Source: Escherichia coli
Lineage (GTDB): Bacteria; Pseudomonadota; Gammaproteobacteria; Enterobacterales; Enterobacteriaceae
NCBI RefSeq assembly: GCF_051903065.1
Contig: NZ_CP178438.1
Reading direction: 5' to 3' (one strand)
Length of the DNA: 64,000 nt
Part shown: positions 1,410 through 18,679 of the stretch, piece after piece
Layout of the letters: every line of letters starts with the position of its first letter
Numbering within the stretch: position 1 is the stretch's first letter
The notes under the pieces: model-generated
The model's input: the letters and a program-made list of their open reading frames with translations, nothing else
Told to the model about the DNA's origin: nothing
The model's database searches: none
Program-made: the position numbers and the translations under genes

Positions 1410-2096
1410 ATGACCGTCGAAACGCAACTTAATCCCACACAGCCTGTCAATCAGCAAATTTATCGTATCCTTCGTCGCGACATTGTCCATTGCCTGATTG
1501 CCCCAGGCACACCGTTGTCGGAAAAAGAAGTTTCTGTTCGTTTCAATGTGTCACGCCAGCCGGTTCGTGAAGCCTTTATTAAACTGGCGGAAAACGGCCT
1601 GATTCAAATTCGTCCGCAGCGTGGCAGCTACGTCAACAAAATTTCCATGGCCCAGGTGCGCAACGGCAGTTTTATCCGTCAGGCCATTGAGTGCGCGGTG
1701 GCGCGTCGGGCGGCGAGCATGATTACCGAAAGCCAGTGCTACCAACTGGAACAAAATCTTCACCAGCAACGCATTGCCATTGAGCGCAAGCAACTGGATG
1801 ATTTTTTTGAACTTGATGACAACTTCCATCAACTCCTGACGCAGATTGCCGACTGTCAACTGGCGTGGGATACCATTGAGAACCTGAAAGCGACCGTTGA
1901 TCGCGTGCGCTATATGAGTTTCGACCACGTTTCTCCACCAGAAATGCTGTTACGCCAGCATCTTGATATTTTCTCTGCCCTGCAAAAACGTGATGGCGAT
2001 GCGGTAGAACGTGCAATGACGCAACATTTGCAGGAAATCAGCGAATCCGTGCGCCAGATCCGTCAGGAAAACAGCGACTGGTTTAGCGAAGAGTAA
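1410..2096 (+). CDS. ydfH: GntR/FadR-family transcriptional regulator (RspR)
   Basis: 228-aa ORF with N-terminal winged-HTH GntR signature; position upstream of ydfZ as in K-12. Confidence 0.85.
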
Positions 2097-2272
2097 TTCA
2101 TTTCCTCTCATCCCATCCGGGGTGAGAGTCTTTTCCCCCGCCTTATGGCTCATGCATGCATCAAAAAAGATGTGAGCTTGATCAAAAACAAAAAATATTT
2201 CACTCGACAGGAGTATTTATATTGCGCCCGTTACGTGGGCTTCGACTGTAAATCAGAAAGGAGAAAACACCT

Positions 2273-2476
2273 ATGACGACCTACGATCGTAACCGTAACG
2301 CAATCACCACTGGCAGCCGTGTTATGGTTAGCGGCACCGGTCACACTGGCAAGATCCTGTCGATTGATACTGAAGGTCTGACCGCTGAGCAAATCCGCCG
2401 CGGAAAAACCGTAGTTGTTGAAGGTTGTGAAGAGAAACTGGCACCTCTGGACCTGATTCGTCTCGGCATGAACTAA
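2273..2476 (+). CDS. ydfZ: small protein YdfZ (putative selenium-binding)
   Basis: 67-aa [20 protein letters not shown]...; followed by hairpin terminator. Confidence 0.85.
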
Positions 2477-2483
2477 GCGTGTG

Positions 2484-2512
2484 AATGCCGCCGATGGCGG
2501 CATTGCTTTTTT
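2484..2512. terminator. Rho-independent terminator between convergent ydfZ and ydfI
   Basis: GC stem AATGCCGCC-GAT-GGCGGCATT followed by GCTTTTTT. Confidence 0.7.
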
Positions 2513-3971
2513 ACTTCACGGAATATTTCGCCACGGTCGCTTTCGCACCATGCGCTAATAAAAACAAGTACGCTTCCGTCACTTTTGCAGTAAACAAGCT
2601 ATTGTCTGGCAAATCATCACCAAAGATCGCCTTAATCGCCAGCAATGACTGGACGCGCGCTTTCCCTTCGGCACTACTTTGTACAGCCTTCTGAATAACA
2701 GGTAACAGTGGGTCACTGATTTCAATCGGATTTCCCTGTTCATCAACACCACCGACATAACGCATCCAACCCGCGACGCCCAGCGCCAGCAGATCGAACT
2801 TGCTGTCATGCGCCAGATGCCAGCGAACAGAATCCAACATCCGCTGTGGCAATTTCTGGCTGCCATCCATCGCAATCTGCCAGGTTCGATGGCGTAACGC
2901 CGGGTTGCTATAGCGTGCAATTAATCGGTTAGCGTAATCTTGCAAATCAACGCCCTGCACTTTCAGCGTCGGCGCTTGTTCCTGCAACATCAAGCCATAC
3001 GCCGCATGACGATAATGTTCATCTTCCATACAGTCATTAATGTGCTGATATCCGGCAAGATAACCCAGATACGCCAGGAATGAATGACTGCCGTTGAGCA
3101 TGCGCAACTTCATCTCTTCATAAGGCAGTACATCGCTAACCAGTTCTGCTCCCGCTTTTTCCCATTCCGGACGTCCGGCAACAAAATTATCTTCGATTAC
3201 CCACTGGCGGAAAGGTTCACAGGCAACGCCAGCAGGATCGCGCACACCGGTAAGTTGTTCGATTTTCGCCAGCGTATCCTCTGTCACTGCGGGCACAATA
3301 CGGTCCACCATTGTTGATGGGAAAGTCACGTTATCTTCGATCCATTGTGCCAGTTTTACATCAACGGCTTGCGCGTAGGAAGTGACAACGTCACGCATAA
3401 CATGACCGTTTTCTGGCATGTTGTCACATGACATGACGGTAAATGCGGGAAGTCCTGCCGCTTTACGGCGAGCCAGCGCCTCAACAATCACCCCTGTTGC
3501 TGTTTTCGGCTGGTGGGGATTTTGCACGTCGGCAACGACCATCGGGTGATCGAGCATTAACTGTCCGGTCGCCGGAGAGTGGAAATACCCTTTTTCGGTG
3601 ATTGTCAGAGAGACAATCGCGATTTGTGGTTCACACATCGCAGCCAACACGGTTTCTAAGCCATCTATCTGTACGTGCAAGGCTTTTTTAACGACGCCAA
3701 CGACGCGAGCCGTCCACGCATCGGCCGACATTTCCGCAACGGTATAAAGATTATCTTGCTGTTGTAAATCGGCAATTTGCTGTTCGCCACCGATTAAGTT
3801 GACCTCATAATATCCCCAGTCACTGAAATGTTCTGTAGCAAGAATATCGGCATACACGCCCTGATGCGCACGGTGAAATGCACCAAAGCCTAAATGAACA
3901 ATTCTTGGGGCCAGGTTATTACGATCATAAACAGGGAGTGTCGCTTTTGCTGATAACAAATTATTTCCCAT
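2511..3971 (-). CDS. ydfI: mannitol dehydrogenase-family oxidoreductase (mannonate/altronate oxidoreductase-like)
   Basis: 486-aa ORF; family assignment from overall similarity to UxuB-type proteins by memory. Confidence 0.85.
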
Positions 3972-4059
3972 AACAATTCCTTAAATTTAAATATGGCAAG
4001 CTACATGTTTTGTTATATGAAGAAAAATCCCCTCTCCGGTAAGAGAAGGGATTGAGGAT

Positions 4060-5343
4060 TTAAAGACTTCTGGAAGGTTGCGCAGCTCTTACAACACGCG
4101 GTTGATCTTCCGCAGCGTCTTCCAGCGCACTTAAATCACGGTCTTTCACTTCTGGCATTTTCAGCGCAGAGATTAAACCAATCACTGAATATGCCATGAT
4201 CATAATGGCGATTGGATACCAGGATTCCGTCATGGTGCAGAAAATACCCGCCAGGATAGGACCAAAACCGGAAGCGATAAGACCACCAATTTCTTTAGAA
4301 ATAGCCATCCGGGTAAAGCGGTTTTTACAGCCGAACATTTCTGCCATGGTAATGTTTTCCAGAGCAAATAATCCCAGCACCGCACAGTTATGAATCACAA
4401 TCAGTGCAACCATAATGGTGCTCGGGGCATAGCTTTTATCTACGATGATAGAAAGCATTGGCCATGCCAGCACAATCGCGGAGGTATTCATAATAATATA
4501 CGGGATCCGGCGACCAATTTTATCGGATAACCAACCAAGGAACGGAATGGTCATAAAGCCGAGAATCGAACTAATCATCAATGCATCTGTTGGAATTGCT
4601 TTGTTAAACAATAACGTCTGCACTAAATAGCCTGCAAGGAAAGTCTGAATTAACCCGGAGTTACCCGCCTGACCAAAACGCAGCCCTGTTGCCAGCCAGA
4701 AGGATTTGCTCTGGAACATGCTACCAGCAGGTGCAGGTTTTGCTGTCGGTTGGTTGCTGTCGTTAACCTTCTCAAAGACCGGGCTTTCTTTCAGATTCAT
4801 ACGCAACCAGATAGCAAAGACCATCACGACAACGCTCGCCAGGAACGGTATACGCCATCCCCACGCCAGCAGTTCCTCTTTACTGAGAATGAAGAACATA
4901 AAGGCCCAGATTGCCGTTGCGCTTAAGGTTCCGCAGTTAGTTCCCATAGCCACAAATGAGGAGATAATTCCGCGCTTACCTTTTGGCGCATATTCCGCCA
5001 GCATCGTACCGGCACCGGAAATTTCCGCACCTGCACCCAACCCCTGAATAATACGCAGCGTCACCAGCAAGATGGGTGCAAAAACACCAATCTGTGCATA
5101 GGTCGGTAACACACCAATTAAGGTGGTACAGATCCCCATCATGGTGATGGTAATAAAGAGCACTTTTTTACGCCCTATTCTGTCGCCCATTTTGCCGAAA
5201 ATAAATGCTCCGACAATACGCGCCACATAACCTGCACCGTAGGTTCCCATTGCCAGAATTAACGCCATTGCCGTTGATGATTCAGGAAAAAATATTTCAT
5301 GAAACACTAACGCTGCGCCGAGTGAATATAACTGGAAATCCAT
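4060..5343 (-). pseudogene. ydfJ: MFS transporter YdfJ (ProP-like), 3' portion; first ~28 codons displaced to 34966-35058 by prophage insertion
   Basis: 427-aa ORF starts MDFQLYSLGAALVF...; upstream N-terminal codons are found at the other prophage end; att core overlaps the ATG. Confidence 0.8.
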
Positions 5344-5345
5344 AA
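5335..5345. repeat. att core copy at left prophage junction (attL-like)
   Basis: GAAATCCATAA identical to 34966-34976; lies at the ydfJ fragment junction. Confidence 0.7.
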
Positions 5346-5946
5346 TTCACAGGTGTTTTTTCCCATCCTGTGGTTTCCTTGGCGTTTTCTAGGTTTTTTC
5401 AGATAGTTGCATTTTTTAAAAAGCATCCTAAGTTCGATCTCAGTGTCTATCTGGGGCCTATTTCTGTCCCATATATGCCCCAAAAAAACTCCCCAACAGA
5501 TAAGTAGTTTTTTCATGGATTTATGCGTAAAATCAAGAACGGCTGGAAATCATTCAATACTCACACTATCGAAAAATTTACCAGCCAACCGCAGCACGTT
5601 CTTGCATAAGGCGTGTCTGCGTTTTTTCAACTATTCAGATACATCACTCCCATCACAGTCATTCCTCCGCATCAAAGGCATATAGGCTATATCACCTTGA
5701 TATTTTTCTTTTTCAGATAAAAACTGTTATCTATGTATACTTTTAAACCCAATCCGTGTAGAGTCTCTGCATAAGATAGTTTGCAGTTGCCGCTTCAGCT
5801 TGCGCCATAAACCGCCTGATTTTTGCTGCCACCTGCTAGCATTCCTGTATACCTGAAACGACAATGTTTATCTACGAACTTTAAAAACACCCAAGATAAA
5901 AATTGTCAACTATATCATATATAACACATTACTAATTCGAGGCTAT

Positions 5947-6060
5947 ATGAACAGCATACTGATAATCACTTCTCTCCTTATCATATTCAGCATTTTTAGT
6001 CATGCCCTAATAAAATTAGGGATTGGCATATCCAATAACCCAGACAAAACCGATGTATAA
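5947..6060 (+). CDS. possible small hydrophobic protein (37 aa, one predicted TM helix)
   Basis: ATG preceded by GAGG; [37 protein letters not shown]; no homology check possible. Confidence 0.3.
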
Positions 6061-6095
6061 GTCAACATATCCTGAATCAGACATACAATATCGCA

Positions 6096-6362
6096 ATGAA
6101 AATCAATAATATTTTAAGGAATATCTTCATGAAATCAAAAGACACCCTAAAGTGGTTCCCTGCGCAGCTTCCTGAAGTAAGAATTATCCTAGGGGATGCT
6201 GTAGTGGAAGTAGCAAAACAGGGAAGACCTATTAATACCAGAACATTGCTTGATTACATTGAAGGAAACATAAAGAAAAAATCATGGCTGGATAACAAAG
6301 AATTATTACAAACAGCGATATCAGTTCTTAAAGACAACCAAAATTTAAATGGTAAAATGTAA
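6096..6362 (+). CDS. ydfK: prophage cold-shock-induced protein YdfK (YnaE paralog); true start may be internal Met at 6129
   Basis: 88-aa ORF containing MKSKDTLKWFPAQLPEVRIILGDAVVEVAKQGRP... Confidence 0.8.
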   Translation: MKINNILRNIFMKSKDTLKWFPAQLPEVRIILGDAVVEVAKQGRPINTRTLLDYIEGNIKKKSWLDNKELLQTAISVLKDNQNLNGKM

Positions 6363-6679
6363 TATAATAAACTTACTTTTTTATCATTTTTCCACTTTAA
6401 CAACATTTTTCTCCACTTTTCCACGTCCAAACAACTTGAAATCTGGTTAAAATAACACGCAACACTATTCTTCTTCCTTGAGTCCGCCCGGAACTCGAAA
6501 AACAAACCGAGTTAAAGCCATTTTTCACAAAATCGATTTTGGGTCTCACCAAAAATTACGGGGTTGCATACGCATTCGTTTATTTTCGAACGTGTACATA
6601 CAAATATGCACAAAAATAATCATAATTATTTTCTGAGATGCATTATGATATGAACACCAATTTCGAATAGAGTCTCACT

Positions 6680-7270
6680 ATGTCTCGAATTTTTGCTTAC
6701 TGTCGGATATCAACGCTGGATCAGACCACCGAAAATCAACGCCGGGAAATCGAAAGTGCAGGTTTTAAAATCAAACCTCAGCAAATAATCGAAGAACACA
6801 TTAGCGGCTCAGCAGCAACCAGTGAGCGTCCTGGTTTTAACCGGTTGCTTGCTCGCCTGAAATGTGGTGATCAATTGATTGTGACAAAACTGGATCGCCT
6901 TGGTTGTAATGCAATGGATATCAGGAAAACAGTGGAACAACTGACCGAAACAGGTATCAGAGTGCATTGCTTAGCATTGGGTGGCATTGACCTGACCAGT
7001 CCAACAGGAAAAATGATGATGCAAGTAATTTCAGCAGTCGCTGAATTTGAACGAGACCTTTTACTTGAACGCACTCATTCCGGGATAGTAAGAGCCCGCG
7101 GCGCAGGGAAACGTTTTGGTCGACCACCTGTGTTAAATGAAGAACAGAAACAGGTGGTATTCGAACGAATTAAGTCAGGTGTAAGTATAAGTGCCATTGC
7201 CCGGGAATTCAAAACCTCGCGGCAAACCATTTTAAGAGCCAAAGCAAAACTTCAGACACCTGACATATAA
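6680..7270 (+). CDS. pinQ: serine-recombinase DNA invertase Pin
   Basis: 196-aa [23 protein letters not shown]... (resolvase/invertase N-terminal catalytic Ser motif) with C-terminal HTH. Confidence 0.9.
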
Positions 7271-7367
7271 AAAATAATCTCGGTGTGAGATGCTTTACGT
7301 GTTCCAAGCCCCCTTCCTTGCCGTAAATGGAAAGATACATCTAATTATAGAATTTATATGTTTTACC

Positions 7368-7943
7368 CTACGGCAGTGCTGGCCATTCAATATCCTGTGC
7401 AGTTGACGTATCAACACGGTTCAGCAATACCCGATACTTTTTCCATGCTTCCAGCAACGAGATTTCTTCCTCCGTTGCAATTTCCAGATCTGCAGCATCC
7501 TGAAGCGGCGCAATATGCTCACTGGCTACCTGCATCAGGTTGTTTTTTGTTTCTTCCGCCTCCCGGATCCGGAACAGTTTTTCTGCTTCCGTATCCTTCA
7601 CCCAGGCTGTGCCGTTCCACTTCTGAAACTCCCCTTCCGGCGATAACCAGGTAACATTTTCCGGTAACGGACCGAGTTCAGAAATAAATAACGCGTCGCC
7701 GGAAGCCACGTCATAGACGGTTTTTCCCCGATGATCTTCAACGAGATGCCACGATGCCTCATCACTGTTGAAAACAGCCACGAAGCCTGCCGGAATATCT
7801 GGCGGTGCAATATCGGTACTGTTTGCTGGCAGACCTGTATGAGGCGGAATATATGCGTCACCTTCACCAATAAATTCATTAGTTCCGGCCAGCAGATTAT
7901 AAATTTTTATGGTCTGTGGTTGTTCACTCATTCTGAATGCCAT
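7368..7943 (-). CDS. tfaQ: tail fibre assembly protein
   Basis: 191-aa ORF immediately downstream of tail fibre gene; Tfa-family organisation. Confidence 0.85.
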
Positions 7944-9127
7944 TATGCAAGCCTCACAATATAGTTAAATGCGATGTTTTTGACGGTGTTTTCCGCGTTA
8001 CCAGCAGCGTTAACGGTGATGGTGTGTCCATGTGAACCAATCGCAACGGAGTGCGTATGAGCACCAATACCGACAGTATGTGCATGTGCGCCTGCGCTTG
8101 CAGCAGTGCCGGACAGCGAGTGGGTATGAGCACCATCTGATGATGTCTTCCCTGCATTACGAGTCTGGCCACTACCGCTTGTTGTGCTCATAATCCCCGC
8201 GCTTAGATTTGAAATCGCGGTATAACCATTAGGGAAAATGCTCGTGTTCGTGCCACCAAATGCACCGGAACTCTTGTGTTGGTGCGCACCGGCACTATTT
8301 GCAGTCCCGCTAATACTATGGGTATGCGCCCCGGTGTTATTCGTGGATTTGGTTCCGTAATCAAACGACGATGTGTTTTTCGTCCCCAAATCCGTACTGG
8401 ATGCGCTGGCGCTGTGGGTGTGCGATTTAATGCCGTCCTGTTCCTGAGACAATACGGCACGACCACTGGCGGGTTTGCCCTTAATCGTCCAGCCACGCAT
8501 ATCAGGGATCACGGCTGACGGATAAGCGGCTGCAAGTTTCGGGTATGCAGATTTGTCAAAAGTCTGCCCCTGCATCAGGGCATAGCCAGACGGAACGGTA
8601 TCTGATGGCCACGGGATTGGTGCGCCAGGCGGATAAAACTGCTCTGATGGCGTATAGAGTGAATAAACTGTACCGTCCGTTAACCCTTCCGGCTTATTAG
8701 CAGAATATGCTGGTGACGTATGAATCGTCACGCTGGCATTACTGGTATAATCCCATTGAATATTTACACCAGTCGCATAATTTCCGATTGCAACGTAAAT
8801 ATCGTAAGTATCACCAGATGTATTGACCCAGGCAAAATTTGTAAACCCTGTCGATGTGCGCTGCCATAAAGCACCAGTAATCCCCTTCGGATTACCATTA
8901 CCTGCACGCAAAACAAGTTCAGATATACCTGCCTGTTGAGGTGACCCCACGTTAAATCCCGCGCCACCAATCAACGTAATTGAAACAACAGAACTCGCCT
9001 GTGGCATGGTTACCGTTGCTAATTTGAACCAACCAGCACCACCGCTGAATGACATTGTTGTTGAGTTAAGCGTACCAATATCTTTCGGCGTCAGTGTTAT
9101 ATCCGCTGAAAGCGCCTTACCATTCAC
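7943..9127 (-). pseudogene. stfQ: side tail fibre protein fragment (C-terminal part lambda Stf-like with His-rich GAHxHS repeats); N-terminal/constant region absent
   Basis: 394-aa ORF; C-terminus ...GAPIPWPSD...GAHTHS...[18 protein letters not shown] resembles lambda Stf C-terminus; in-frame TGA immediately 5' of ATG and IS903 32 bp upstream. Confidence 0.75.
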
Positions 9128-9159
9128 CTTACGGGCAGAAGGTACCCGACCATTCGCAT

Positions 9160-10216
9160 GGCTTTGTTGAATAAATCGAACTTTTGCTGAGTTGAAGGAT
9201 CAGATCACGTATCTTCCCGACAACGCAGACCGTTCCGTGGCAAAGCAAAAGTTCAAAATCACCAACTGGCCCACCTACAATAAAGCCCTCATCAACCGTG
9301 GCTCCATAACTTTCTGGCTGGATGATGAAGCTATTCAGGCCTGGTATGAGTCAGCAACACCTTCTTCACGAGGCAGACCTCAGCGCTATTCTGACCTTGC
9401 CATCACGACTGTGCTGGTCATTAAACGCGTATTCAGGCTGACCCTGCGCGCTGCGCAGGGCTTTATTGATTCCATTTTTTCTCTGATGAACGTTCCGCTA
9501 CGCTGCCCGGATTACAGCTGTGTCAGCAGGCGGGCAAAGTCGGTTAATGTCAGTTTCAAAACGCCCACCCGGGGTGAAATCGCACACCTGGTAATTGATT
9601 CCACCGGGCTGAAGGTCTTCGGTGAAGGCGAGTGGAAAGTCAAAAAGCATGGCCAGGAACGCCGCCGTATCTGGCGTAAGCTGCATCTCGCCGTTGACAG
9701 TAAAACACATGAAATCATCTGCGCTGACCTGTCGCTGAACAACGTTACGGACTCAGAGGCCTTCCCCGGGTTAATCCGGCAAACCCACCGGAAAATCAGG
9801 TCAGCCGCCGCCGATGGCGCTTACGATACCCGGCTATGTCACGATGAACTGCGGCGTAAGAAAATCAGCGCGCTTATCCCTCCCCGAAAAGGTGCGGGTT
9901 ACTGGCCCGGTGAATATGCAGACCGTAACCGTGCAGTGGCTAATCAGCGAATGACCGGGAGTAATGCGCGGTGGAAATGGACAACAGATTACAACCGTCG
10001 CTCGATAGCGGAAACGGCGATGTACCGGGTAAAACAGCTGTTCGGGGGTTCACTGACACTGCGTGACTACGATGGTCAGGTTGCAGAGGCTATGGCCCTG
10101 GTACGAGCGCTGAACAAAATGACGAAAGCAGGTATGCCTGAAAGCGTGCGTATTGCCTGAAAACACAACCCGCTACGGGGGAGACTTACCCGAAATCTGA
10201 TTTATTCAACAAAGCC
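9160..10216 (+). mobile_element. IS903-like insertion sequence (IS5 family), 1057 bp
   Basis: 18-bp terminal inverted repeats GGCTTTGTTGAATAAATC at 9160-9177 and 10199-10216 (reverse complement); single transposase ORF; no 9-bp target duplication. Confidence 0.85.
9192..10160 (+). CDS. IS903-type DDE transposase
   Basis: 322-aa [55 protein letters not shown]...; recognised as IS903/IS102-type by memory. Confidence 0.85.
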
Positions 10217-11317
10217 TTTATGACCTAAAAGAAGTTCGACAATATAAGGATCCGCCCCCATATCATTAAGCGTAGTGGAAAATGTGCGCCTGAAATCATG
10301 TATGCACCACAAGCCATTAGTATCATGACCAAGACACCTGCATATTCTGTTTGCAGCCCCTGTTATTGTCGCCCTTTGCAAAGCACAACCGACAACATAA
10401 CCGCGATTTTTTGTTTCTGCGTAAAGATTAACGATCCATTGTTTTATTCCGTCAGGAACAGGCCTTACTATAGCCTCCTTGTTTTTGCTGTGCTCTTTTG
10501 GGACTGTCCATACCCAGTTTTTTAAATCCCATTCGTCCCAGGTGGATAGCCTCGCCTCCTGCTGTCGGCAACCAAACACCAGGCAGATAACCATTATTCT
10601 TCGGTTATATATTGATGACAGAGTTAGCAAATTATTACCGTAAGCATAAGACCATACATCAGCGGTTTCATTGATATTAAGAACGCGATCCCTTATACCG
10701 GATGAGCGCCCGACATAACTTACGTTAATATCTCCAAAGGGATCGCACGCGATGTATTGCCTGACGCGACAAAAACGCAACGCCTGTTTGATATCAAGAA
10801 AAATTGCACCAGACATAACAGGCGCATTTTTTTTGATCCTGTCAAAGACGGTAAGCCATGTGTGTAATTTGCACTGTTCTATAGCCATATCACCGATATA
10901 GGGGAAGATATGCTTTTCAAATCGTTTTATTAAATATTCATGCTCTTTTCTGGCTGTTGTGGCGTGATTGTCGTACCAGTAAAACAGCGCATCCCTTACG
11001 GTCACTGGTTGCATAGTTTTTTCGGCAGCAAGTTTTATTTGCCTGCGGGGGTCCAGATTTTCAGCCAGCCATTCACGGCACTGATCACGCATGCGCCTGG
11101 CCGTTGCAAGAGACATGTCAGGATAGCGACCAAGTGTAAGCCATACCGGAGGGGATTCCCTGCCACCAAGACGATAGTAAAAAACAAAGCTGATCCCCCC
11201 AACCATGCTTACACGCACAGACAACCCGCGCCCATCCGCTATTGTTTTTTGTTTGTCCTGCCGTTTTCCGACAAGACTCTTTAACAGTTTGTCACTGAGT
11301 TTGTTTTCAATAGCCAT
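10202..11317 (-). pseudogene. P4-family tyrosine integrase, C-terminally truncated by IS903 (catalytic Tyr region missing)
   Basis: 371-aa ORF with HDFRRT and LLGH core motifs; reading frame ends FVE-stop inside the IS903 inverted repeat. Confidence 0.75.
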
Positions 11318-11465: not shown

Positions 11466-14446
<2,981 letters not shown>

Positions 14447-14472
<26 letters not shown>

Positions 14473-14992
14473 TCAGCAACCCCGGTATCAGTTCATCCAG
14501 CGCGGCTGCTTTGTTCATGGCTTTGATGATATCCCGTTTCAGGAAATCAACATGTCGGTTTTCCAGTTCCGGAAAACGCCGCTGCACCGACAGGGGGATC
14601 CCGTCGAGAATACTGGCAATTTCACCTGCGATCCGCGACAGCACGAAAGTACAGAATGCGGTTTCCACCACTTCAGCGGAGTCTCTGGCATTTTTCAGCT
14701 CCTGTGCGTCGGCCTGCGCACGCGTAAGTCGATGGCGTTCGTACTCAATAGTCCCTGGCTGGAGATCTGTCTCGCTGGCCTGCCGCAGTTCTTCAACTTC
14801 CCGGCGCAGCTTTTCGTTCTCAATTTCAGCATCCCTTTCGGCATACCATCTTATAACGGCGGCAGAGTCATAAAGCACCTCATTACCCTTGCCACCGCCT
14901 CGCAGAACGGGCATTCCCTGTTCCTGCCAGTTCTGAATGGTACGGATACTCGCACCGAAAATGTCAGCCAGCTGCTTTTTGTTGACTTCCAT
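14447..14992 (-). CDS. lambda-like terminase small subunit Nu1 (NohA-type)
   Basis: 181-aa ORF MEVNKKQLADIFGASIRTIQNWQEQGMPVLRGGGKGNEVLYDSAAV... Confidence 0.9.
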
Positions 14993-15215
14993 TGTTCATT
15001 CCACGGCCAAAAACAGAGAAAGGAAACGACAGAGGCCCAAAAGCTCGTTTTCAGCACCTGTCGTTTCCTTTCTTTTCAGAGGGTATTTTAAATAAAAACA
15101 TCAAGTTACGACGAAGAAGAACGGAAACGCCTTAAACCGGAAAATTTTCATAAATAGCGAAAACCCGCGAGGTCGCCGCCCCGTAACCTGTCGGATCGCC
15201 GGAAAGGACCCGCAA
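14993..15215 (-). other. lambda-type cos site (cosB, cosN and probable cosQ)
   Basis: Reverse complement reads ...CAGGTTACG GGGCGGCGACCT CGCGGGTTTTCGCTATTTATGAAAATTTTCCGGTTTAAGGCG...; 12-nt cohesive-end sequence at 15170-15181; matches lambda cos from memory. Confidence 0.8.
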
Positions 15216-15380
15216 AATGATAATAATTATCATCTGCATGTCACAACGTGCATCTACGCCATCAAACCACGTCAAATAATCAATTATGACGCAGATATCG
15301 TATTAATTGATCTGCATCAACTTAACGTAAAAACAACTTCAGACAATACAAATCAGCGACACTGAATACGGGACAACCTC

Positions 15381-15614
15381 ATGTCAACGAAGAACAGAAC
15401 CCGCAGAACAACAACCCGCAACATCCGCTTTCCTAACCAAATGATTGAACAAATTAACATCGCTCTTGAGCAAAAAGGGTCCGGGAATTTCTCAGCCTGG
15501 GTCATTGAAGCCTGCCGCCGGAGACTGTGCTCAGAAAAAAGAGTTTCTTCTGAAGCAAACAAAGAAAAGAGTGACATTACTGAATTGCTCAGAAAACAGG
15601 TCAGACCAGATTGA
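15381..15614 (+). CDS. ynfO: prophage small protein YnfO
   Basis: 77-aa ORF, position between cos and ydfO. Confidence 0.65.
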   Translation: MSTKNRTRRTTTRNIRFPNQMIEQINIALEQKGSGNFSAWVIEACRRRLCSEKRVSSEANKEKSDITELLRKQVRPD

Positions 15615-15656
15615 AGCAATTTAGATAATCGTGCAGACTACGCCCCCTCATATCAC

Positions 15657-16082
15657 ATGGAAGGTTTATCTATGGATCAGGTAGTCATTTTTAAACAAAT
15701 ATTTGATAAAGTTCGAAACGATTTAAACTATCAATGGTTTTATTCTGAGCTAAAACGTCACAATGTCTCACATTACATTTACTATTTAGCCACAGAGAAT
15801 GTTCATATTGTATTAAAAAATGATAATACAGTGTTATTAAAGGGCCTAAAAAACATTGTGTCTGTCAAATTTTCAAAGGATAGGCATCTTATAGAAACGA
15901 CCTCTAATAAGCTGAAATCCAGAGAGATCACATTTCAGGAATACAGAAGAAACCTTGCTAAAGCAGGAGTTTTTCGGTGGGTTACAAATATCCACGAACA
16001 AAAAAGATATTACTATACCTTTGATAATTCATTACTATTTACTGAAAGCATCCAGAAAACTACACAGATCTTACCACGCTAA
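15657..16082 (+). CDS. ydfO: prophage protein YdfO (DUF1398 family)
   Basis: 141-aa ORF; position as in K-12 Qin. Confidence 0.75.
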
Positions 16083-16233
16083 ACCATAACGTCCGGCTTC
16101 TCTCACTCCTGAGCCGGACTGCATTGGTTTAATAAAAACCATCAACAATTGTGATTTAGATATTCGGAACCATTCAAATATAACAAAACCCCGTAAAAAC
16201 GAGGTTTATGGATAAATTTTATTATTGAATACA

Positions 16234-16407
16234 TCAGATTAAATTAATCTTGACATCATAGCTTTCAAGACCCGTCATTTTTTCCCGTGCGGTAAACTGA
16301 ATACTGGTAACTTCTTTCCCGGTCTTTTTCTTAAGTTCAATAATTTTTTTTGTTATATATTCAGAAATATCTGCTTCTGCTTTTGTTTTTAAGTTTTCAA
16401 TATTCAT
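16234..16407 (-). CDS. gnsB: GnsB (suppressor of secG/fabA phenotypes), 57 aa
   Basis: Hand translation of minus strand: MNIENLKTKAEADISEYITKKIIELKKKTGKEVTSIQFTAREKMTGLESYDVKINLI; not in supplied ORF list (below length cut-off). Confidence 0.8.
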   Translation of the reverse strand: MNIENLKTKAEADISEYITKKIIELKKKTGKEVTSIQFTAREKMTGLESYDVKINLI

Positions 16408-16578
16408 CATTTCCTCTTTTAGTCTGTTATGACTTTCCAGTTACACAGTAAGTCGATTATATGGTGCAAACGTGTAAAAGATAAGATGAAACATCGCAAT
16501 AATCAACATACGATAGTCTAAATTTTACACAAACAGACAAAGAGAATTTTCCTGAATTATCAATGCAATAGCATCAAA

Positions 16579-16809
16579 TCAACTCAAGAGCCTTATTGCT
16601 GCTTCCAGAATTTCTTCTGAAGTAACATGTCGATCCGCGGCTACATAAATGACTTTATGATCTCCGGTCAGAGATGGAAACCCTGCGGCCATTACAGTAA
16701 GGTGTGTTTTTTCGCCATTTGGATATTCACGCATGATGGTGTTAACTCCAGTCATCGCTGGCACTACCACTGCTGGTTCAGAGTTAAAAAAAACTATGAT
16801 TTTTTTCAT
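16579..16809 (-). CDS. ynfN: prophage small protein YnfN
   Basis: ORF 16579-16851; likely start at MKKIIVFFNSEPAVVVP... Confidence 0.65.
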   Translation of the reverse strand: MKKIIVFFNSEPAVVVPAMTGVNTIMREYPNGEKTHLTVMAAGFPSLTGDHKVIYVAADRHVTSEEILEAAIRLLS

Positions 16810-17080
16810 GATGTTACCGTAGTATGTGAGTATCCATCGAATAGACACCAAGCAAAAAAGCTCCCGAAGGAGCCTTCATTTTCACTTTTTTAAATCCAAC
16901 GACAGACGGCTGGCATTTAAGTATTGTGAAATATTATCAAATGTAATCATCATTGATTTACAAAAGATACATTTTGCCCCGAAAGGATTCATGTCAGAAA
17001 CATCAAAAGATGATGTTCTATACTGGGAACCATGACAACACGGGCATCTAAAGTGAATATGGTTTGTAATATTGTCTACC

Positions 17081-17293
17081 TCAAAGCGCCACTACATGAA
17101 CAGCGGCAGGACCTTTAGGTCCGTTCTCAATACCAAATTCAACTTCCTGATTCTCAGTTAATGTTTTGAAATCGTTGCTCTGAATTGCTGAGAAATGGAC
17201 AAACACATCTTTGCTGCCATCTTTCGGCGTGATGAAACCAAAACCTTTTTCAGGGTTAAACCATTTCACTAAACCAGTCATTTTGTTAGACAT
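17081..17293 (-). CDS. cspI: cold shock protein CspI (CspA family)
   Basis: 70-aa [26 protein letters not shown]... cold-shock domain RNP motifs. Confidence 0.9.
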
Positions 17294-17655
17294 AATTATT
17301 ACCTTTTGAAGAAATTAGCCCTTGGGCAGAATGGTCCGAAAAAAAATATCAGAGAGAAAAACCAACAAGGAAATCTCAAGAGGTACAAATAATAAAATTA
17401 TAACAATGACTGCTTCAGATAAATTTGTAACAAACCAGAACACCATTAACGCATGATTAACCACCCATAGCAAGGATTACTTTTGTAAAGAAAAACACAG
17501 CAATGAAAGAATAGCTTTATTTATTAATAAAACGTGTCATTCTGATTAAGACCTTTTATCTTACCCTTAAGATTTCAGGAATTTTGGCTCATGGAAGAGT
17601 CCTTTTTATTTAAATTTTACATTCCGCGATGTAAATGTTCCGATTTAATATTACC

Positions 17656-18679
<1,024 letters not shown>

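Follow-up and report, generated by a model that had tools for sequence, protein, structure and literature searches.

Results

Genes and features around pinQ

We analysed the surroundings of pinQ, a gene for a small serine recombinase, in a window of 64,000 nucleotides of Escherichia coli DNA (contig NZ_CP178438.1 of assembly GCF_051903065.1), where it reads toward the tail-fibre genes tfaQ and stf across a short gap. A first-pass annotation of this DNA had taken pinQ for a Pin-type invertase, left beside a single tail-fibre orientation by the probable collapse of its invertible segment. Our analysis leads to a different view: pinQ is most likely a resolvase gene (tnpR) that has remained from a decayed, compact Tn3-family transposon, an orphan at this place and not the invertase of the adjoining operon. 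From left to right, in positions of the window, the locus is composed of the following genes and features.

5947-6060, plus strand: ynfT, a small open reading frame (ORF) of the conserved prophage end module ynfT-ydfK-pin (RefSeq annotation mapped from 100%-identical relatives)
6129-6362, plus strand: ydfK, encoding the cold-shock protein YdfK (the mechanical start of the ORF is 6096)
6363-6581, no strand: conserved non-coding stretch, unrelated to the transposon
6582-6679, plus strand: relic of a Tn3-family res, its tnpR-proximal part (local alignment and half-site matrix)
6680-7270, plus strand: pinQ, a small serine recombinase of 196 aa and tnpR homologue (Resolvase and HTH_7 domains, Pfam)
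7279-7313, minus strand: relic of a right inverted repeat (IRR), a degenerate Tn3-family terminal inverted repeat (contiguous transposon homology)
7314-7367, no strand: 54 bp of phage DNA, from the transposon end to the tfaQ stop codon
7368-7943, minus strand: tfaQ, a tail-fibre assembly gene of 191 aa (Caudo_TAP domain, Pfam)
7943-9159, minus strand: the C-terminal 405 codons of stf, a lambda-type side tail-fibre gene (Collar and Phage_fiber Pfam matches)
9160-10216, plus strand: IS903B (IS5 family), with 18-bp terminal repeats and without a target-site duplication

Several of the first-pass statements about this layout are borne out. Both the ORF list and a Pfam scan agree that pinQ is intact, with 196 codons on the plus strand and both domains of a serine recombinase of this type, Resolvase and HTH_7. 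The closeness of pinQ and tfaQ is likewise real, the only correction being that the gap measures 97 bp and not 98 bp. That the locus has no alternative tfa-stf set is confirmed by tblastn with Tfa and the Stf C-terminus, each of which is found in single copy in the 64-kb window.

PinQ groups with transposon resolvases

The identity of PinQ to PinE is 38.6% and to Gin 35.2% (a range of 35-39% when Cin is included), whereas PinE and Gin are 77.7% identical to each other. Invertases of the classical group are closely related, sharing some 60-80% identity, and can replace one another. A search of E. coli genomes recovered plasmid genes with 83% DNA identity to pinQ, and at the protein level PinQ shares 83-84% identity, along with its length of 196 aa, with the product of the gene in the tnpR position on plasmid NZ_CP182384.1. 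This plasmid carries, at 14801-18248, a compact Tn3-family element that consists of a left inverted repeat (IRL), tnpA, a 160-bp intergenic region, tnpR and IRR, and that is bounded by terminal repeats of 38 bp (GGGG...ACGCTAAG). At least 169 plasmids carry 80% or more of this transposon.

The relationship extends well beyond E. coli plasmids. A protein search returned thousands of PinQ relatives with 77-85% identity across the Enterobacterales and Shewanella, and at eight of the nine places examined for those with 78-80% identity, in Shewanella, Hafnia and Klebsiella, the gene is divergently oriented to that of a Tn3 transposase of 994 aa, complete or as a fragment. The intergenic distance between these relatives and the transposase is constant, at 159-160 bp. 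One Shewanella genome holds three copies.

In a neighbour-joining tree, PinQ and a second prophage allele of it are nested within the clade of transposon resolvases and lie far from the classical invertases (Gin, Cin, PinE and that of HK225). The 5' part of the coding sequence, where the invertase genes of classical switches carry a Fis-dependent recombinational enhancer, has its homology in pinQ with transposon tnpR, and not with cin or gin. A homologue in Erwinia phage LS-2018a (61% identical) was also followed into its genomic context, which offered no informative repeats, and was set aside.

When copies L025-L029 are compared with window positions 6340-7270, the pin gene of this second prophage allele differs by 10% in DNA and by 15% in protein, with a synonymous divergence (dS) of 0.22. 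In these copies ydfK and the 320 bp upstream of pin are still approximately 98% identical to the window, a pattern that seems to reflect either a cassette-like exchange of the coding region or homogenisation of the flanks. A few further proteins (P0004-P0008) are chimeric, with an N-terminal part of the transposon type, including the Arg discussed below, and a C-terminal part of the PinQ type; some of them come from short contigs and are possible assembly artefacts. Such chimeric recombinases suggest that plasmid tnpR and prophage pin genes may have recombined with each other.

Transposon homology flanks pinQ on both sides

Contiguous with the homology of the gene, and just downstream of it, lies a degenerate terminal repeat (7279-7313) in which approximately 27 of the 38 positions match the IRR of the transposon, with a 3-nt deletion; a repeat of this kind is present at this one end only, with its outer GGGGG end facing tfaQ. 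The homology stops exactly at the outer GGGG of the repeat, and beyond this point the window and both plasmid flanks all differ from one another. The 97-bp spacer between pinQ and tfaQ is accordingly made up of 8 bp, the 35-bp relic of the repeat and 54 bp of phage DNA.

Upstream of pinQ, similarity to the transposon reaches to approximately 6582-6584, which is inside the right half of res site I. In the transposon itself res is canonical, with a site I of 12-4-12 (28 bp), a site II of 12-10-12 (34 bp) and half-sites of the form nTG(T/A)(C/A)CGAAAnn. What the window retains of it is the right half of site I (6582-6593), site II (6606-6639), in which the 12-10-12 spacing is kept, and a half-site of site III (6659-6670). 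The half-sites of the site II relic are mutated, and on the half-site matrix it scores 14.2, within the range expected by chance, compared with 29-31 for real sites. The stretch from 6582 to 6679 probably carries the promoter of pinQ.

Searches of the window with tblastx and tblastn revealed no trace of a transposase, and no second terminal repeat is present in the window. With its crossover site and its transposase gone, the element is unable to move or to resolve, and it is a relic, not a transposon.

Between ydfK and this relic lie some 220 bp of non-coding DNA (6363-6581) that are 98% identical across prophage copies and have no homology to the transposon. This stretch holds a perfect 14-bp palindrome, CAAAATCGATTTTG (6528-6541), and repeated TTTTCCAC motifs.

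The locus has no crossover sites

To score crossover sites we used a 12-2-12 matrix for which pix, gix and cix were read from e14, Mu and P1, respectively, and hix half-sites were added. Real crossover sites score 26.5-30 on this matrix, which also recovers, upstream of the HK225 gene for an orphan invertase of the classical type, a single pix-like remnant. A scan of this kind had been proposed in the first-pass annotation as a check. When it was run on the 64-kb window, the best score was 11.4, below the mean maximum of block-shuffled sequence (12.0), and the best score between 6300 and 9200 was 2.9. The same matrix scan found no crossover sites in two intact Qin-type prophages with full-length stf, nor in phage HannyBb. 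An inverted-repeat search of 5500-9300 returned short, weak pairs only, of the sort that arise by chance.

Individual candidates fared no better. A half-site, GAATTCAAAACC, at 7205 within the 3' end of pinQ is gix-like with a score of 8.2; it has no partner half, and similar scores occur by chance. The palindromes CAAAATCGATTTTG and TGTACATA-N4-TATGCACA (6592-6613) were considered as cognate sites of PinQ and rejected, each being single in the window and without a partner, and no E. coli genome breaks homology at either of them.

There is consequently no site in the window at which PinQ could recombine in cis, neither sites of the gix/pix type nor an intact res, and any biological effect of PinQ must therefore be exerted in trans. 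The view that this is not a working tail-fibre switch holds, both crossover sites and a second fibre set being absent, and the first-pass caution over gix/hix-like sites, none of which had been confidently identified by eye, was justified.

A switch of the classical kind does occur beside pinQ in a related prophage (L023, IMGVR_UViG_2744054976_000007), where, at 1500-6100, a Mu-type G segment adjoins pinQ and a 32-codon remnant of tfaQ. It comprises gix sites at 2009-2046 and 5058-5095, opposed Sv/U sets and a gin cut to 72 codons, and is a genuine decayed invertase switch.

The joint of pin and tfa is widespread and not bound to one fibre gene

The 97-bp gap between pin and tfa, and the gene order around it, are identical in the Rac and Qin prophages of E. 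coli K-12. Among 5,426 complete E. coli genomes, 2,682 carry ynfT-ydfK-pin-tfa colinear and in a single piece, and on this basis inversion around pinQ at the level of the population was rejected; breakpoints do recur within tfa (approximately 7479-7487), and they coincide with no site. An identical pin is found in the same position, between the fibre genes and att/int, in the viable phages HannyBb, mEp460, 2H10, Tritos and PhiR63_1. In HannyBb and in many prophage predictions the fibre module is a different one and only the last 37-46 codons of tfa accompany pin, which means that the pin module is not bound to one fibre gene.

The part of tfa that moves with the pin module is overlapped by a match to Rfam IS009 (RF02111) inside the tfaQ coding sequence (7402-7600, minus strand), which scores 220.9 bits against a gathering score of 117. 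Apart from this match, promoter, terminator and Rfam scans gave nothing that bears on the question.

Phage-borne copies have lost a catalytic arginine

The active-site set of serine recombinases (Y6, R8, S10, D36, R68 and R71 in Tn3 numbering) is incomplete in PinQ. Y7, R9, S11 and R73 are present, and at position 36 PinQ and the transposon copies alike have Glu. The position of Arg71 of Tn3/gamma-delta resolvase is occupied by Cys76 (codon TGT), in the motif KLDRLG(R), in 27 of 27 phage-borne copies, among them both alleles, K-12 pinQ and pinR, a viable phage and the window. At the equivalent position Arg is found in all ten of the transposon copies, in the Erwinia phage homologue and in PinE, Gin, Cin and the HK225 enzyme. 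In Tn3 resolvase, the substitutions R71A and R71K abolish recombination and make cleavage approximately 1000-fold slower (PMC2794168). From the presence of Cys in place of the catalytic Arg in every phage-borne copy, we infer that PinQ is a DNA-binding protein but a poor catalyst.

The ratio of nonsynonymous to synonymous substitution (dN/dS) is 0.35 between the two prophage alleles, compared with 0.02-0.07 among transposon copies. This indicates that constraint on PinQ is relaxed, not absent.

The tail-fibre genes and the IS903B boundary

The stf-tfa pair is an ordinary single-orientation operon of the lambda type. Its Tfa has the Caudo_TAP domain, its Stf has a collar and HxH motifs, and the order J-lom-stf-tfa is complete in two intact relatives. 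The repeats at the Stf C-terminus, which had been likened to those of lambda Stf, amount to seven (G/S)(A/S)HxH(S/T/K) motifs and are accompanied by the Collar and Phage_fiber matches.

It had also been claimed that the N-terminus of stf is missing beside a copy of IS903 and that the ORF starts right after an in-frame TGA. The loss is real and the neighbour is IS903B, but the account of the start does not hold: the GTG at 9127 is merely the first start codon in frame, the Stf-homologous frame runs on to 9159, and the in-frame TGA lies at 9200-9202, within IS903B and 72 nt upstream of the GTG. In strains 042 and 23CRST027 the gene is full-length, with 987 codons, of which stf in the window keeps 405, at 100% identity; the window lacks the N-terminal 582 codons as well as lom and J. 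The flanks of IS903B differ (left CATTCGCAT, right TTTATGACC) and no 9-bp target duplication is present, so the N-terminus of the fibre was lost through a deletion or rearrangement associated with the IS and not by simple insertion.

On its right, IS903B abuts a P4-type integrase gene cut at its C-terminus (10202-11317, minus strand), which in turn adjoins a truncated lambda-type portal gene (11466-12347, minus strand). Strain LCP30S3_I3 has an identical joint of IS903B, integrase and truncated portal gene, but lacks pin-tfa-stf, and the exact stf-IS903B-integrase joint is absent from all 5,426 complete E. coli genomes.

Since a truncated ydfJ, ynfT and ydfK lie to the left of pinQ, and J-lom-stf are found in the intact relatives, the region 4060-9159 can be identified as one end, that of the attachment site, of a defective lambdoid prophage of the Qin/Rac type located at ydfJ. 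The locus is thus one that is already known, namely the pinR/pinQ-tfa-stf end of K-12 Rac and Qin, further damaged by IS903B.

Discussion

The homology, its boundaries, the parts that are missing, the Cys substitution and the lack of sites are direct results of the analysis, whereas the sequence of events, the weakening of catalysis and the role of PinQ today are inferred. An origin of pinQ from a transposon can be placed in the following history. In an ancestral phage, one end of a Tn3-family element would have come to lie 54 bp downstream of tfa. Later losses would have taken the transposase gene, the second terminal repeat and that half of res which held the crossover site, with a break at or beside the centre of res site I. 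This would have left approximately 730 bp (6582-7313), in which degenerate accessory res subsites, the intact ORF and the degenerate terminal inverted repeat can still be recognised. IS903B, for its part, has removed the N-terminal 582 codons of stf.

Several points weigh against this history, or against the view that PinQ is a poor catalyst. We searched for an empty site by means of an artificial joint of the ydfK flank and the tfa flank, and this joint was matched only as two pieces separated by pin; the one apparent exception proved to be a pin cut by IS1. One transposon end alone survives, whereas the 5-bp target duplication of a Tn3-family insertion is read from both, and the left break can be placed, with respect to the centre of site I, to within a few bases. 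With respect to catalysis, Kirigo et al. (2025) reported that, when PinQ is produced, the inverted fraction of the e14 P segment goes up from approximately 30% to 88% and protection against phage T2 is gained (PMC12529663), which suggests that PinQ, with its Cys, is nonetheless a real recombinase at pix sites. Tn3 resolvase mutated at R71 has, moreover, been called "not inert" (PMC2794168), and over-production could reveal a residual activity of PinQ. Finally, thousands of genomes and also viable phages carry the ORF intact, with a dN/dS below 1, which argues against pinQ being purely a fossil.

The reading from which the analysis set out is that pinQ encodes an invertase of the Gin/Cin/Pin type and that the adjoining invertible segment has collapsed by deletion of the alternative Sv'-tfa' set, leaving pin to face one tfa-stf set much as in a P1 that had lost half its C segment. 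The geometry of P1 is compatible with this, given that cin reads toward the C segment and that cixL overlaps the 3' end of cin, and orphan classical invertases do exist in lambdoid phages, that of HK225 keeping one pix-like remnant with a score of 14. The related prophage with a Mu-type G segment, gix sites and a truncated gin beside pinQ might seem to lend it further support, but this G segment belongs to its own truncated gin and not to pinQ. Neither the 3' end of pin nor the spacer nor stf has a site or the remnant of a half-site, whether in the window or in the prophages in which stf is full-length. In addition, PinQ stands at 35-39% identity to classical invertases that are approximately 78% identical to each other, the spacer of 97 bp is explained by a transposon terminal repeat together with phage DNA, and the joint is a fixed feature of thousands of genomes and of viable phages, including ones with unrelated fibre modules. 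With the resolvase ancestry of the gene and the transposon relics around it, these observations leave the idea of a collapsed invertible segment without support, and we consider it highly improbable.

The remaining explanations concern what PinQ does at present, and each has evidence on both sides. PinQ could be a fully active invertase that the host has co-opted, inverting the P segment of e14 at pix sites elsewhere in the genome; P inversion would turn on the chimeric StfE2 and so block T2 adsorption, and all this would be compatible with a transposon origin. In its favour are the 88% of inverted P in K-12 upon PinQ production, the abolition of the effect by deletion of stfP, stfE or e14, and the induction of pinQ by T2 (PMC12529663). 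The window protein is identical to K-12 PinR and is two residues removed from K-12 PinQ. The same study found that PinQ does not invert DNA adjoining itself, with inversions detected by BLAST in e14 only and none in Qin or Rac, and that in a pinE mutant the P segment is locked despite the presence of pinQ and pinR (PMC12529663). A P segment locked under these conditions fits PinE as the catalyst, and the effect of PinQ may therefore be indirect or dependent on over-production. Added to this, Cys occupies the position of the catalytic Arg71 in every phage-borne copy, the window has no pix site, and on the half-site matrix of transposon res, which is the closest match of the PinQ DNA-binding domain, pix and gix score at most 8.6, as against 29-31. 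We regard full activity as possible but rather unlikely.

At the other extreme, pinQ could be a fossil without any function, carried as a passenger within the non-essential b region by phages of the Rac/Qin type, its frame open only because too little time has elapsed. The loss of the cis site and of the transposase, the replacement of the catalytic Arg, the degeneracy of the res relic and a dN/dS five- to ten-fold above that of transposon copies would all be expected of a fossil. Its frame has nevertheless stayed intact across two alleles separated by a dS of 0.22, with a dN/dS of 0.35 that is below 1, the gene is kept in viable phages, and phenotypes have been published for both its deletion and its over-production (PMC12529663), so that this view, too, appears somewhat doubtful to us. 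A further possibility is that PinQ and PinR are domesticated Tn3-family resolvases, which would have lost efficient catalysis through the change of Arg to Cys when they were stranded in an ancestral lambdoid phage and would have been kept for non-catalytic DNA binding. In such a role they could bias the inversion that PinE or another true invertase carries out, or regulate it, or they could bind the res sites of related plasmid transposons. We put this forward as a speculation that is, on present evidence, unlikely; if it were true, the published anti-phage defence by "PinQ-mediated inversion" would be indirect.

Whatever its present role, our reading of pinQ as a leftover tnpR agrees with Kirigo et al. 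(2025) that the gene is an orphan (PMC12529663). In the searchable literature, we found no paper that proposes a Tn3-family origin for it or that notes the Cys at the position of the catalytic Arg. Both the transposon origin and the fixed loss of this Arg bear directly on the 2025 study, in which PinQ is claimed to be the enzyme at work in a new anti-phage defence. There is also a consequence for annotation: thousands of transposon resolvase genes, described in public databases as "putative DNA-invertase from lambdoid prophage Rac", have come to bear the label "Pin invertase", which raises the false expectation of a neighbouring tail-fibre switch. In scans of genomes, a pinR or pinQ next to just one tfa can be set aside, as the arrangement is known and does not switch.

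The closest counterparts of the locus are the Rac and Qin prophages of K-12, with which it shares the order ynfT/ynaM-ydfK/ynaE-pin-97 bp-tfa-stf. PinR of Rac is identical in protein to the PinQ of the window, and PinQ of Qin differs from it by two residues. In Qin, stf is joined to nohA, whereas in the window it is cut by IS903B, and the interior of the window prophage is more rearranged than that of its K-12 counterparts, an integrase lying beside a truncated portal gene. With the TnpR proteins of the plasmid, Shewanella, Hafnia and Klebsiella elements, PinQ has in common an identity of 83-84% and a homology that continues onward into the region of res sites II and III and into the 38-bp repeat. 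It departs from a Tn3-family transposon in lacking tnpA, the second repeat and the left half of site I, in the mutated half-sites of its res and in having Cys in place of the catalytic Arg.

The resemblance to the switches of e14 (Pin and the P segment), Mu (Gin and the G segment) and P1 (Cin and the C segment) lies in a small serine recombinase beside tail-fibre genes, and in P1 the invertase likewise reads toward the fibre genes. Each of those switches comprises a pair of 26-bp crossover sites in inverted orientation and a pair of opposed Sv-tfa sets, none of which is present in the window. The orphan invertase of HK225 is similar to pinQ in position, in that it lies in the lambdoid b region, between the fibre genes and attP, and has no invertible segment; it differs in being a true enzyme of the Gin family with a pix-like site, CCCTCCCAAACCAACCTTTTTTATAA (5913-5938, score 14), just upstream. 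HK225 is thus, unlike pinQ, a real candidate for a collapsed switch.

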